DNA of 13,465 nt from a virus, in the UHGV virus genome UHGV-2124687. One strand, 5' to 3'. Positions 3,054 through 10,911 of the stretch are shown here, piece by piece. The first letter of the stretch is position 1; every line of letters starts with the position of its first letter. The notes beneath the pieces are model-generated. The model ran no database searches. It saw nothing but the letters and a program-made list of their open reading frames with translations, and was not told where the DNA came from. The translations under genes and the position numbers were made by a program.

Positions 3054-3461
3054 TTATTTTTTTTCTGTTCGTTTGCGGGCTTTTAGGAGTTCTTCGAAGA
3101 GCTGGTTGAAGTTTTCAACTCGAGCCCGGAGATTTTGGATTTGAGCTTGTTGCTCTGATTCTGGCAAAGAGCGATAGAGCTCAAGCATCTCTTGTTCATC
3201 AACGCTTAAAGTTCTCTGCTCTTCAATTGAGACTGGTTCTGCAGGAGTCTGGTCTTCATCACCAAACAAAATCCAAGTAGGGCTGCACTGGAGCACCTTA
3301 GCAAGTGCATGCAGGTTCTTACCTGAAGGCTCTGTGTTGTCACTTTCCCATAGCGAAATAGTGGCGTGCGATATCCCGAGAGCTTTTCCAAGATCTCGCT
3401 GCGTTAACCCAACATCTTTGCGTCGACGTAATACTCGACGACCTAAAGTTTCACTATTCAT
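3054..3461 (-). CDS. dicA: DicA-like HTH (XRE-family) prophage repressor, 135 aa
   Basis: Translation has an N-terminal HTH (GLTQRDLGKALGISHATISLWE) and the tail ...AKVLQCSPTWILFGDED...LPESEQ...RARVENFNQLFEELLKARKRTEKK, closely matching my recollection of E. coli DicA (same length). Divergent from a Cro-like gene. Confidence 0.9.
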   Translation of the reverse strand: MNSETLGRRVLRRRKDVGLTQRDLGKALGISHATISLWESDNTEPSGKNLHALAKVLQCSPTWILFGDEDQTPAEPVSIEEQRTLSVDEQEMLELYRSLPESEQQAQIQNLRARVENFNQLFEELLKARKRTEKK

Positions 3462-7541: not shown

Positions 7542-7560
7542 NNNNNNNNNNNNNNNNNNN
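7542..7560. other. Run of 19 N (gap or masked bases)
   Basis: Literal n characters in the sequence. Confidence 1.
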
Positions 7561-7782: not shown

Positions 7783-7950
7783 ATGAAGAAAGTTCTTGTT
7801 GCTTTATTGTTGTCACTTTTCTCAGTGACAGCAACGGCAGCAAACAAGCCATGCTCAGGTAAGAAAGGCGGAATATCGCATTGCTCGGGTGAAAAGTTTG
7901 TTTGTAATGATGGCTCTATCAGCAAGTCTAAGAAGGTTTGTCAGAAATAG
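7783..7950 (+). CDS. Small secreted peptide, 55 aa: signal peptide plus ~33-aa Lys-rich mature part with four Cys
   Basis: Internal ATG of ORF 7693..7950; N-terminus MKKVLVALLLSLFSVTATAA looks like a Sec signal peptide (no lipobox); mature part NKPCSGKKGGISHCSGEKFVCNDGSISKSKKVCQK; terminator-like hairpin ~30 nt downstream. Confidence 0.55.
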   Translation: MKKVLVALLLSLFSVTATAANKPCSGKKGGISHCSGEKFVCNDGSISKSKKVCQK

Positions 7951-7982
7951 TTGCCGATAAATGGCACTCACCATCAAAAACA

Positions 7983-8004
7983 AACCCGCTATGGCTGGTT
8001 TTTT
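7983..8004 (+). terminator. Terminator hairpin, third copy of the element's 3' module
   Basis: AACCCGCUAUGGCUGGUUUUUU, one mismatch in the stem; same module as at 7703-7725 and 11007-11029, followed by the same ACTC tail. Confidence 0.4.
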
Positions 8005-8070
8005 ACTCTCTATTGGATACGCTATTTTTTAGGCATTAAGAGCGATTAGTAGGACGCTTCTGGAGAAGGC

Positions 8071-8268
8071 GTGGATTCAACGAACGACGAAGAAAAGCGC
8101 ATAGAATTTGAAAAATTCATCATTGAAAAGTTTGGTGATGCAGTTGATCTCCGCAGGGCGAAAAATGGCGATAACGGATATTTATCATGGGAGGCGGCAG
8201 TAGCATGGACTGTCTGGCGGGAGCGCTCATCTCATCATGAAACAACGTCTACCTCTGGCGAGAACTGA
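8071..8268 (+). CDS. Hypothetical acidic protein, 65 aa, GTG start
   Basis: GGAGAAGG directly upstream of the GTG at 8071; first ORF of three overlapping ORFs in three frames. Confidence 0.4.
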   Translation: MDSTNDEEKRIEFEKFIIEKFGDAVDLRRAKNGDNGYLSWEAAVAWTVWRERSSHHETTSTSGEN

Positions 8269-8461
8269 TTTAGTATGGTGCTGCCCGGAGCTTCCTGTTA
8301 ATCACTATGTACTCCCGTTTAGCCACGTCATTTTAGATTTGGTTTTGGTCCGCTATGAGCGAGGAGCAGAAGTTCGTAATTCCTTTAGACAATCCTCCAG
8401 GGAGGTTATGATAAAATATACAGCCATAAAGCCTATAGGGAGTGGACATGACATTGTTTGA
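8237..8461 (+). CDS. Hypothetical protein, 74 aa (weakly supported)
   Basis: ORF-track ORF overlapping its neighbours by 32 nt and 20 nt; weak RBS. May be a frameshifted remnant. Confidence 0.25.
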   Translation: MKQRLPLARTDLVWCCPELPVNHYVLPFSHVILDLVLVRYERGAEVRNSFRQSSREVMIKYTAIKPIGSGHDIV

Positions 8462-8822
8462 GGAATGTAAGGAACTGCTCAAGACAGATTTTAATGTTGT
8501 GGAAGGGGATGATTTGAGCGCGATAATGGATATTTTTCATCAATATCCATGGCATAGCGGTAATCTCAGATGGTCGGAAATGGACTTCAGCGATTATGAA
8601 CTTAGTCATGATATGTTTAACGGGGGCGGTTTAGGCAATGAAACTGTATTTGTCATAGCGGATGATGCGAATGTACCCGTGTTCAGAACCCATCTACAAC
8701 TCATTGTCGATAATATCTACGATGTCATCGCCATATCACCTAACCTATTTATTTTTAATGATAAAATAATGATTAAACCTTTATTCCCTCATAATTATAT
8801 ACGGTTTGGTCTGCGAAAGTGA
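8442..8822 (+). CDS. Hypothetical protein, 126 aa, strongly AT-rich
   Basis: GGGAG upstream of the ATG; AT-rich codon usage unlike the phage backbone. Immunity-protein-like is only a guess; no family recognised. Confidence 0.45.
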   Translation: MDMTLFEECKELLKTDFNVVEGDDLSAIMDIFHQYPWHSGNLRWSEMDFSDYELSHDMFNGGGLGNETVFVIADDANVPVFRTHLQLIVDNIYDVIAISPNLFIFNDKIMIKPLFPHNYIRFGLRK

Positions 8823-9091
8823 TGAGCAGAAATACTGACCAGCTCCCCGTTGTTCAACTAAGACTTGTTATTGACAACTTCCGCTAATGGCACGGAGCGG
8901 ACAGGCCAAGCGACTTGTCAGGTCGGCTATGAGCGAAAAGCTGACATTAATTAAACCACAGGAAAGCTACCTGTCCAGAGAGAATGGTCAGGGGAGCAAA
9001 CGGTGAGCTCCATTAAGTTGTCGCTGCTTTTCTCGGGCTGTCAGCGCAAGCCGGAGATGGGCAGAAAAAAAGTCGTGTCTGGATCGCTAAA

Positions 9092-9587
9092 TCAAAGTGT
9101 CATCATCATTTCATGCCATGCCATTCCACCGTGGTCCGATTCTGACGGTTTGATGTACTGGTAACCAAAATGGGCGTACAGATCGACGTGGCGGTCTTTG
9201 CACATCAGGTGAATGGTTTTTTTGTTCATTGCTATCATGCGCGTCACAAATTCACGCATCAGTAATGATGAATATCCTTTGCCCTGGTAATCAGGGTGCA
9301 CCACGACAGACATAATCACTGCATTGGGTGCATCCGGATCGTGACCTACCAGTTCTTTGAACTCTTCGTCGGACATCACGACTTCCCACGCACAGCCCGC
9401 ATTAATGAAACCAATAACGTCACCGTTCAACTCCATGCATANNNNNNNNNNNNNNNNNNNNNNNNNNNNNNNNNNNNNNNNNNNNNNNNNNNNNNNNNNN
9501 NNNNNNNNNNNNNNNNNNTGTGATTTCAATATCATAGCAACGATCAACATCGGCATCAGTGGCCTGACGGAATACAGGGGTAGACAT
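9092..9587 (-). CDS. GNAT-family N-acetyltransferase, interrupted by the N run
   Basis: Start reconstructed by hand at 9587 (MSTPVFRQATDADVDRCYDIEIT...), upstream of the track ORF 9092..9556; downstream part has a GNAT-like core (HPDYQGKGYSSLLMREFV). Frame across the gap is undefined. Confidence 0.8.
9442..9518. other. Run of 77 N (gap or masked bases) inside the GNAT gene
   Basis: Literal n characters in the sequence. Confidence 1.
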
Positions 9588-9723
9588 AGCCTTGCCTCTT
9601 CAGATTCATTTGTTTGGAATTATACTATCTTTTTTTTATCCTGCTTTCGCTGCATTTTATTCAACACTAAAATGTAGAATATTCATTTATTGTGTTTTAA
9701 ATAATATCTGAGAAAGAAGAATC

Positions 9724-10695
9724 ATGATGTCAACGTTGCGCAAGATCGATCTGAATTTATTGCTTATATTCGATTCTCTTTATCGGCATGGAAGCGTGAC
9801 GGAGGCCGCCAACGAACTGGCACTAAGCCCATCCGCACTAAGTCATGCGCTCAATCGCTTACGTACATCACTGGACGATCCCTTATTCGTGCGCACTGGT
9901 GGAAGCATGGTGCCCACGTCAAAAGCTGAAAGCATTGCAGCAAGTATTTCTGCCGCTCTAGGAAGTCTCTCGTCCTGCCTGCATGAGCCAGAACACTTTG
10001 AGCCGGAAAAAAGCCGGGAGAGTTTTACCTTTGCTGCTACGGACTACACTGCCGCCGCTATCCTGCCAAGCTTGATCGCGAGGGTTAACAGCCTTGCGCC
10101 GGGCATTACCATTAAGCTTATCTACTCACGCGATTTTAACGCCGACGAAGATTTGCTTTCAGGCAAAGTTGATTTCGCCCTTGGCTTTGAAGAAGAGCAG
10201 AAAGCCCCACGGCGCGGCATAGAGTCGATTACTTGCTTTACTGATGATTACGTGGTTGCAGTGCGACGCGGTCATCCTAATATCCAGGATTCCCTTACCC
10301 AAGAGCGTTATCTGAGCGCCGGACACGTAGTGGTGCGTCCATGGTTGGAAAGACGGGGGGGGATCGACCGTTATCTGGAAAGTCAGCAGGTACGTCGCCG
10401 GGTCGTTGTTGAATTGCCAAGCCTGATGATTGCCCCAATTATCGTTTCGAATACTGATCTGGTTATCACGCTTCCCAAGCGGGGGATCTCATCAGTTTTT
10501 GATATGAAAAATCTGGTGGTGTTTGCTCCCCCGTTCCCGACACCACAGTACATTTTGAAAGCCTATTACAGCCCGGCACTCGGTAACTCGCCAGGGCATA
10601 TATGGATGAGGGGGCAAATTTTGCAGGTTTGTGATCCGCTAAATCCGGCGATGCCAGTAATTGCTGTCGATACAAATTCTGGTACAGAAAGGTAA
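9724..10695 (+). CDS. LysR-family transcriptional regulator, 323 aa
   Basis: N-terminal LysR-type HTH (KIDLNLLLIFDSLYRHGSVTEAANELALSPSALSHALNRLR) and typical length; divergent from the GNAT gene across a 136-bp AT-rich region. Confidence 0.9.
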   Translation: MMSTLRKIDLNLLLIFDSLYRHGSVTEAANELALSPSALSHALNRLRTSLDDPLFVRTGGSMVPTSKAESIAASISAALGSLSSCLHEPEHFEPEKSRESFTFAATDYTAAAILPSLIARVNSLAPGITIKLIYSRDFNADEDLLSGKVDFALGFEEEQKAPRRGIESITCFTDDYVVAVRRGHPNIQDSLTQERYLSAGHVVVRPWLERRGGIDRYLESQQVRRRVVVELPSLMIAPIIVSNTDLVITLPKRGISSVFDMKNLVVFAPPFPTPQYILKAYYSPALGNSPGHIWMRGQILQVCDPLNPAMPVIAVDTNSGTER

Positions 10696-10911
10696 TCCGA
10701 TCATCTTTACTGCTCTCTAACTAGCTATCAGTTTAATGAATTCCTAGTAATTTAAAGCAGGGAGCGTTCATTATGTGACTCATGTCGAAGCTTAGTGTCA
10801 GGGAGAGAGGTAGTAAGACTTCGAAATTGTTGGACGTCTGCTTCTGGCACTATCCAGCCCTTTGCTGATTGAAAAAGACGAATGAAAGTTGGATACGCTT
10901 TACCTCATGGT

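Follow-up and report, generated by a model that had tools for sequence, protein, structure and literature searches.

The three overlapping open reading frames (ORFs) at positions 8071–8822 of the UHGV virus genome UHGV-2124687 amount to two genes, and those two genes are unrelated to each other. It is very probable that ORF1 is a phage gene, that ORF2 is a frame formed at a junction, and that ORF3 is an orphan cdiI, an immunity gene of the contact-dependent inhibition (CDI) type, residing in an exchanged cassette bounded by hairpins. Within the window (the whole stretch of 13,465 nt that was analysed), ORF1 (8071–8268, + strand, GTG start, 65 aa, frame 1), ORF2 (8237–8461, + strand, ATG start, 74 aa, frame 2) and ORF3 as originally listed (8442–8822, + strand, GTG start, 126 aa, frame 3) overlap by 32 nt (ORF1/ORF2) and 20 nt (ORF2/ORF3), with lengths, coordinates, starts, and frames exactly as reported in the initial annotation.

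Identification of ORF3 as cdiI

ORF3 is recognisable as a full-length immunity protein of the CdiI family. The product matched Pfam PF24172 (CdiI_ImmP, EcoliA0-like; E = 5e-35, 121 bits, cut-off 33.2) over residues 3–123 and the full length of the profile (positions 1–129 of 129), and aligned with the CdiI chain of PDB entry 5T86 (chain I, residues 1–124 to 1–124, ~49% identity, E = 8e-39). A Shine–Dalgarno (SD) sequence, GGGAG, is spaced 5 nt from an ATG at 8448 and does not suit the GTG at 8442; therefore, the true product is 124 aa (cdiI, 8448–8822, + strand), which is the length of every ORF3 homolog and of the 5T86 CdiI chain. The initial annotation had ascribed strong SDs to the first and third frames; the former is good (GGAGAAGG, then GTG), while the latter exists but fits ATG 8448 and not the listed GTG. 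It had also described the third frame as markedly AT-rich, like foreign genes such as immunity proteins, and both points proved correct, with a GC content of 37.6% (the window as a whole has 47.6% and the replication-gene backbone 51%) and with the PF24172 and 5T86 CdiI matches.

A protein 100% identical to the ORF3 product (WP_016150400.1, ‘CDI toxin immunity protein’) occurs on an IncN-like Escherichia coli plasmid, and Citrobacter youngae possesses a CdiI identical to that of the window. The family is known and already annotated, and ORF3 is a new instance of it, ordinary in itself. All compared copies of cdiI were intact at 124 aa, except for one with a premature stop (L012), and dN/dS against the window copy ranged from 0.19 to 0.51. 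By these evolutionary criteria, cdiI is intact, under purifying selection and functional.

Absence of an adjoining toxin gene

Profile searches and tblastn revealed no CdiA, CdiB or toxin-like frame in the window, and the sequence upstream of cdiI, where the toxin gene of a cognate pair would lie, consists of a phage gene and a junction element. Database homologs of cdiI fall into two sets, a clade with 74–100% identity and a group with 45–57%. No toxin adjoined the copies of the 74–100% clade in the 10 or more contexts inspected, which comprised IncN, IncFII and phage-like IncFIB plasmids, plasmids of Hafnia and Pantoea, chromosomes of Serratia rubidaea and Siccibacter, and prophages. Because no toxin gene adjoins it, ORF3 is an orphan immunity gene. 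Distant homologs (45–50% identity), in contrast, are located directly 3′ of toxin genes; in Serratia proteamaculans, an intact CdiA of 3,258 codons ends 6 nt upstream of the cdiI homolog, and its last 106 aa match the toxin of 5T86 (chain A, E = 9e-62). The CdiI of the E. coli A0 34/86 type (5T86 chain I, PF24172) has the same 124 aa as the window protein and aligns with it end-to-end, and its relatives directly follow a CdiA ending in a 5T86-type toxin, whereas the window gene occupies a prophage cargo slot without cdiA or cdiB.

The 5T86-type toxin is described as having a BECR fold and as a putative RNase. No mechanistic paper on it was found in the literature, and a Pfam scan of the toxin tail returned no family; the same immunity fold serves a type VI secretion system (T6SS) Rhs toxin (SciX). 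The toxin domains of four loci (L013, L014, L015 and L018) and of 5T86 are 82–92% identical while their CdiI partners are 58–67% identical, indicating that the immunity proteins diverge much faster than the toxins, and toxins with mutual identities of 76–92% likewise pair with CdiI proteins that are merely 58–67% identical. Given this range for genuine partners, the window CdiI, at 45–49%, is therefore not far outside it. In one further locus (L019), the toxin is intact (76–85% identical to the others) and cdiI is truncated to 34 aa. From these relationships, the window CdiI would most likely bind and block a small 5T86-type toxin with a BECR fold (putative RNase) that neighbours introduce by CDI or by a related polymorphic-toxin system, and a lysogen would be protected without making the toxin itself.

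Cassette boundaries and allele exchange

The DNA common to the window and >15 otherwise unrelated loci always extends from ~8347 to ~8893–8902, and both edges are a 24-nt palindromic element with the arms GTCCGCT and AGCGGAC. Judged by these alignments, cdiI is contained in a cassette of ~555 bp with constant edges that recurs in prophages, plasmids, and chromosomes. The left edge (hairpin B, 8348–8371, + strand) reads GTCCGCT-ATGAGCGAGG-AGCAGAA, with a decayed 3′ arm, and the right edge (hairpin A, 8879–8902, + strand) reads TTCCGCT-AATGGCACGG-AGCGGAC. A variable spacer of 19 nt (8903–8921, + strand), recognised by junction alignment across loci, separates hairpin A from the next hairpin B (8922–8945, + strand, GTCGGCT-ATGAGCGAAA-AGCTGAC), which opens a second cassette and is an exact match to GGTCNGCTATGAGCGA. 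The window holds 2 exact copies of GGTCNGCTATGAGCGA compared to 0.29 matches expected by chance (≤3 mismatches allowed). In two loci, hairpin A is tandemly repeated 2–3 times with a 39-nt period after the cdiI cassette (L008:10432–10533, Citrobacter youngae; L001:8528–8590, an IncN-like plasmid).

The most direct view of exchange at these edges is provided by a sister prophage (L030), which is 98–100% identical to the window up to 8349 and 84–96% identical over 8350–8850, where it encodes a different CdiI allele (85% amino acid identity to that of the window). After 8900 the two are unrelated, until they become identical again from 10835, at a half-decayed hairpin A (10836–10859, + strand, GTCTGCT-TCTGGCACTA-TCCAGCC) that forms the right end of the cargo slot and at which backbone homology resumes. 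Read from this comparison, the cdiI allele is swapped exactly at hairpin B between near-identical prophages. Homology to L030 and two other prophage loci (L002 and L026) resumes at 10834–10847, with the equivalent element of L030 at 8708, and in the E. coli prophage L002 the hairpin B motif is located where homology to the window stops.

Between hairpin B and cdiI, the leader holds a predicted sigma-70-like promoter (8384–8412, + strand, TTTAGA-17-TATGAT, from a consensus scan) and is largely conserved across copies of the cassette. A perfect palindrome, CCTCCAGGGAGG (8393–8404), lies between the −35-like and −10-like hexamers, is itself largely conserved among the copies and could be an operator. 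With the predicted promoter and the SD, the cdiI cassette looks self-sufficient for expression. The gene would thereby arrive with its own predicted promoter and ribosome-binding site in the ~555-bp cassette, and this cassette has passed between prophages, plasmids, and chromosomes, probably through recombination at hairpin B and hairpin A.

Several observations weigh against this explanation. The promoter is a 9/12 consensus match, and such matches in the region do not exceed the shuffled expectation, while no canonical terminator was found in the cdiI cassette region. The window carries partly decayed hairpin copies whose folding is weak (z = −1.4 and −1.8), and a formal test detected no significant covariation in the hairpin stems. 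With respect to the toxin, the ORF3 product is just 45–49% identical to the CdiI proteins that adjoin toxins, hence a specificity for that toxin type is tentative, and the contexts inspected for the 74–100% clade yielded no cognate toxin. Compensatory changes that appeared to extend hairpin A to 9 bp failed a formal test, as 139 of 500 shuffles did as well. The junction elements may function either as hairpins in folded form or as palindromes in duplex DNA.

ORF2 as a junction-spanning frame

ORF2 is a spurious frame that runs from the 3′ flank of ORF1 through hairpin B into the cdiI leader and is not a gene. It has no SD and no family or structure match (Pfam, NCBIfam, PHROGs, PDB). Homology to E. 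coli prophages covers 7983–8370, and homology to the cdiI segment of plasmids begins at 8352; therefore, the backbone and cdiI segments meet inside ORF2. The database ‘homologs’ of ORF2 are predicted proteins of 45–79 aa that each cover only one half, such that, in alignment, the N-terminal half is joined to at least 4 different C-termini and the C-terminal half to at least 4 different N-termini. The switch point is VRYER, the translation of GTC CGC TAT GAG CGA, which is hairpin B. Moreover, the leader that supplies the C-terminal half contains 1-nt and 7-nt indels among cassette copies. ORF2 is not a conserved coding sequence, because its halves occur joined to other sequences and the leader has indels, and the frame arose where backbone and cassette joined. 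Two metagenomic contigs carry a predicted 89-aa ‘protein’ that crosses hairpin B upstream of cdiI (L035:3565–3834 and L036:402–671), an artefact of the same junction-spanning type.

The same leader is the subject of an alternative explanation, in which a cdiA-CT toxin gene formerly lay before this cdiI and the C-terminal half of ORF2, ~100 nt upstream of cdiI, is what remains of its 3′ end, so that the cassette would be an orphan cdiA-CT/cdiI module in decay. CDI loci are well known to contain orphan modules in which the toxin is truncated (PMC9086364, PMC3150448), and in many cassette copies the leader frame is open throughout, ending 13 nt into cdiI. An open stretch of ~33 stop-free codons, however, is not unusual by chance (a rough estimate is ~20%), and the indels among the copies signify that the frame is not conserved. 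When the tails of eight upstream frames, five of them from genuine 5T86-type toxins, were compared by tblastn with all frames of 7950–8500, matches were scattered (E > 0.1), and the leader instead holds the promoter-like site and SD. In contrast to orphan modules of the type of Poole et al. (2011), the upstream sequence bears no toxin-tail similarity, and the location is a prophage cargo slot. A decayed toxin end is, on this evidence, improbable. The broader proposal of the initial annotation, that the three frames could be the decayed remnant of a longer gene, also fails, and so does the outcome it had named as refuting, one gene broken by frameshifts, as ORF1 and cdiI each match a complete, independent family and ORF2 matches nothing.

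ORF1 as a phage backbone gene

ORF1 has homologs of 65–66 aa, mostly from Citrobacter, with a consistent start and the conserved core FGDAVDLRRAK..GY.SWEAAVAW.VW, and at the equivalent position E. coli prophages have an annotated homolog of 198 nt. A profile search placed residues 8–60 as a domain in at least 213 representative proteins of 58–448 aa, some of which also carry DUF551 or Ead_Ea22 and match phrog_660 or phrog_60. The ORF1 product itself had no Pfam, NCBIfam or PDB match, and PHROGs gave only a weak phrog_660 hit; an AlphaFold2 model was of low confidence (pLDDT 63) and matched no PDB fold. The profile and structure searches that had been proposed for each product were, in sum, successful for ORF3, while ORF1 and ORF2 were without a Pfam or PDB match. 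By its domain distribution, ORF1 consists of a single domain of ~50 aa that stands alone here and is otherwise shuffled through the Ead/Ea22/DUF551-type mosaic proteins made early by lambdoid phages. It is prophage backbone at the edge of the cargo slot, outside the cassette, and nothing ties it to toxins.

These results bear on the suggestion that the three frames could form a small toxin-immunity or defence operon, in which ORF1 and/or ORF2 would supply the small toxin or the defence effector, and ORF3 the cognate immunity protein. The spacing is tight, with the overlaps of 32 and 20 nt; ORF3 truly is an immunity protein; and the ORF2 stop overlaps the ATG of cdiI by 14 nt, with the same geometry as the upstream frame over cdiI in another locus (L017). 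Nevertheless, ORF1 and ORF2 match no Pfam, NCBIfam, PADLOC-relevant or PDB entry and contain no toxin domain, ORF1 is an Ea22/DUF551-type phage module present without cdiI in E. coli prophages, cdiI occurs in >15 contexts without ORF1 or the N-terminal half of ORF2, and ORF2 is chimeric. The ORF1 and cdiI segments have separate histories and join inside ORF2. A three-gene operon is therefore largely refuted and, in our estimation, highly improbable.

Prophage setting and cargo slot

Profile searches of the window genes, the order of which is matched in E. coli prophages, identified the window as the early region of a lambdoid prophage. The early-region genes start with a CI-like repressor (3054–3461, − strand) and continue with Cro, a YdaT-like protein, DUF4222, an O-like replication protein with a DnaT domain, a P-like protein, and DUF1627, followed by small cargo genes and then DinI, a RecA-dependent nuclease, and RusA. 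The cargo slot is situated between the replication genes and dinI/nin. The prophage host is probably Citrobacter, because nearly all ORF1 homologs are from Citrobacter and an identical CdiI occurs in C. youngae.

Slot contents differ among related prophages. The window carries the cdiI cassette and a second cassette (8922–10859) with a GNAT N-acetyltransferase (9092–9556, − strand, Pfam Acetyltransf_1, E = 3e-10) and a LysR-family regulator (9724–10695, + strand, Pfam HTH_1 and LysR_substrate), both absent from L030, as is the cassette as a whole. L030 possesses the other cdiI allele and an insertion sequence (IS) remnant, and L002 a single unrelated gene. The ~250 nt that take the place of cassette 2 in L030 (L030:8455–8707) look, by eye, like the beginning of an orfA of the IS3 family that contains an in-frame stop. 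Megablast searches of the plasmid and E. coli collections returned nothing for cassette 2. In Pantoea (L005), cdiI is likewise followed by GNATs, which in L035 occupy adjacent cassettes. The sequence is masked with N in two runs (96 N in total) that start at 7542 and 9442, the second within the GNAT gene, the translation of which is consequently incomplete. Upstream of ORF1 lies another cargo-type gene, encoding a small YdcA-family protein (7783–7950, + strand) common to E. coli prophages, which matched NF007463 (E = 6e-26, just below the cut-off) and phrog_6000 and has a hydrophobic, signal-peptide-like N-terminus.

Junction elements in other genomes

The consensus junction consists of hairpin A (GTCCGCT-yyTGGCACrr-AGCGGAC), a spacer of ~18 nt and hairpin B (GTCCGCT-rTGAGCGArg-AGCGGAC), each loop being characteristic of its hairpin. 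A query of the 39-nt spacer plus hairpin B was found in 2,515 of 5,426 complete E. coli genomes, at 1–6 copies each and almost never annotated. Full junctions were present on 278 plasmids (from Enterobacter, Klebsiella, Pantoea, and Citrobacter; mostly conjugative) and in a few phages, including two of 33.8 kb with the junction between the tail-sheath and tail-fibre-assembly genes, which we take to be the P2 Z/fun hotspot. Exact full junctions occurred in 31 IMG/VR contigs. Arrays strictly follow the order B-gene-A.B-gene-A in a single orientation, regardless of gene strand, as seen in the window and in four other loci (L035, L038, L040, and L075), with a further junction copy at L034:3965–4030. 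This architecture is integron-like, with sites in the same orientation and the cargo or allele replaced at the sites between strains.

The 44 unique cassettes (median, 1.2 kb) include the defence genes ShosT, OLD-type ATPase-Toprim, PD-T7-1, PD-T7-5, and a viperin-like radical-SAM protein, as well as proteins with HEPN, SIR2, RES, and NucC-like nuclease domains, GNATs, and metabolic enzymes. No Rfam family matched the hairpins when the window region and clean copies of the junction were scanned, and the literature yielded no description of the junction motif or of hairpin-bounded cassettes.

A tyrosine recombinase of ~200 aa (Pfam Phage_integrase) is located 40 nt from a degenerate hairpin B in some loci, with a conserved linker of 60 nt. 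The recombinase-linker-hairpin B unit was identified in L034, L004, L038, L065, L075, and CFT073, settings that comprise an E. coli island (L034), a Hafnia plasmid, a Siccibacter immunity islet, a viral contig, a Pantoea plasmid, and CFT073. Phage_integrase-family copies were mapped at L034:1385–1984 (− strand), L004:6476–7065, L038:4504–5082, L065:14212–14487, L074:8998–9600, and L075:3011–3613. On the Hafnia plasmid, the recombinase directly follows the cdiI cassette and is frameshifted. Among the 5,426 E. coli genomes, 889 contain the recombinase (CFT073 included), interstrain homology stops inside hairpin B, and the first gene past the recombinase-adjacent site varies by strain. The window itself holds no such recombinase gene.

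Two explanations for the movement of the cassettes, site-specific capture and a homologous exchange similar to that of PeSL cassettes, are about equally plausible. In the former, a small tyrosine recombinase dedicated to the task would act in trans on the hairpin A/B junctions as its recombination sites, with integron-like gene capture. The conserved placement of the recombinase relative to hairpin B in six loci, its presence in the 889 genomes where homology breaks inside hairpin B, the differing first gene after the site, and the single site orientation per array whatever the gene strand are all consistent with this. Conversely, no recombinase lies near the window or most loci, the 2,515 genomes with junctions compare to only 889 with the recombinase, and the association is based on a handful of inspected loci. 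We regard dedicated recombination as a tentative possibility.

In the latter explanation, the junctions would be passive conserved patches (24–66 nt), perhaps regulatory or terminator-like, that allow general or phage-encoded homologous recombination to exchange the DNA between them. The same flanking elements surround very different cargo, a promoter-like leader often follows hairpin B, many sites have no recombinase nearby, and the cdiI allele swap between near-identical prophages resembles a double-crossover replacement; a precedent exists in the PeSL cassettes of T4-type phages (PMC2839356, PMC4122927). Against passive patches, some loci do have the linked recombinase, and the loops are conserved as well as the arms within a strict A-spacer-B order and orientation, which suggests specific recognition rather than mere homology. 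Passive homology is a quite possible mechanism, if somewhat short of a probable one.

Taken further, the junctions and the ~200-aa recombinase could constitute an undescribed integron-like capture system of the Enterobacterales, moving single-gene cassettes among lambdoid and P2-like prophage hotspots, conjugative plasmids, and chromosomal islands, with the window cdiI as one captured cassette. Its cargo would then include ShosT, PD-T7-1, OLD-type ATPase-Toprim, toxin-immunity genes such as cdiI, and GNATs. This proposal as a whole is doubtful at present.

Discussion

Immunity genes retained without a toxin have been described in several settings, and the window cdiI shares with such orphan islets a presumed role in protection against the toxins of neighbours. 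Acquired interbacterial defence clusters of the Bacteroidales were reportedly described by Ross et al. in 2019. Clusters of this type (10.1101/2025.05.03.651265), orphan cdiA-CT/cdiI modules at CDI loci (PMC3150448), an islet of Salmonella Typhi with an orphan cdiI (PMC7400221), and orphan cdiI genes outside CDI loci (PMC7400221, PMC9086364, PMC3150448) are all documented. Unlike orphan immunity islets, the window cdiI is not downstream of cdiBAI and lacks a truncated cdiA-CT bearing the VENN motif; furthermore, its carriers are a prophage and conjugative plasmids, and palindromic bounds were not found described for those systems. The Siccibacter homolog shares its islet with Imm63 and DUF3916 genes, has a T6SS effector nearby and adjoins the small tyrosine recombinase, a setting that resembles recombinase-associated immunity arrays.

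The cassette arrays share with integrons mostly single-gene cassettes of ~0.4–4 kb, same-orientation site arrays, and accessory cargo (GNAT, VOC, defence, and immunity genes), and at some loci the first site has a tyrosine recombinase in divergent orientation beside it. They differ in that the sites of the window type are two 24-nt palindromes plus a spacer, compared to the RYYYAAC/GTTRRRY boxes of attC, in a recombinase of ~200 aa compared to ~320 aa for IntI, and in the promoter of their own that many cassettes apparently possess. Identity with integron attC was considered and rejected, as the junction consensus, GTCCGCT-N10-AGCGGAC (twice), lacks R″/R′ boxes by inspection; an IntI-type integrase was likewise rejected, with none in the window and the ~200-aa Phage_integrase-family protein found elsewhere too short for IntI.

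The nearest described concept is that of the PeSL cassettes of T4-type phages (PMC2839356, PMC4122927), in which a short stem-loop and promoter-like sequence likewise flank small, variable, swapped genes. The morons of lambdoid phages and the P2/P4 defence hotspots (PMC9122126, PMC13586616) are similarly small variable genes in plastic regions of phages, with known defence cargo. Of the features of a moron, cdiI has a position between backbone genes and absence from relatives; its promoter-like site occurs at chance frequency, and no canonical terminator accompanies it. Compared to all of these, sequence and phage groups differ, and plasmids and chromosomal islands, too, frequently carry the window-type element. 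Boundary palindromes go unmentioned in the papers on prophage defence hotspots (PMC9122126, PMC13586616), which settle on no mechanism of swapping.

The cassette boundaries, and the cassette system to which they belong, are an interesting by-product of the analysis, while cdiI itself is ordinary. Recent literature (PMC13586616) leaves unanswered how defence and immunity genes are swapped so fast between prophage hotspots and ‘cryptic islands of unknown mobility’, and the conserved bipartite palindromic junction, sometimes with a small tyrosine recombinase, is a testable candidate mechanism. The junction also offers a simple sequence handle for new cargo genes, and it calls for caution in annotation, as junction-spanning ORFs such as ORF2 are repeatedly called as proteins. 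A prophage-borne orphan CdiI, a modest finding by itself, adds to the immunity genes that are kept without toxins and supports the idea that temperate phages may protect their lysogens from the contact-dependent toxins of neighbours, and not just from other phages.

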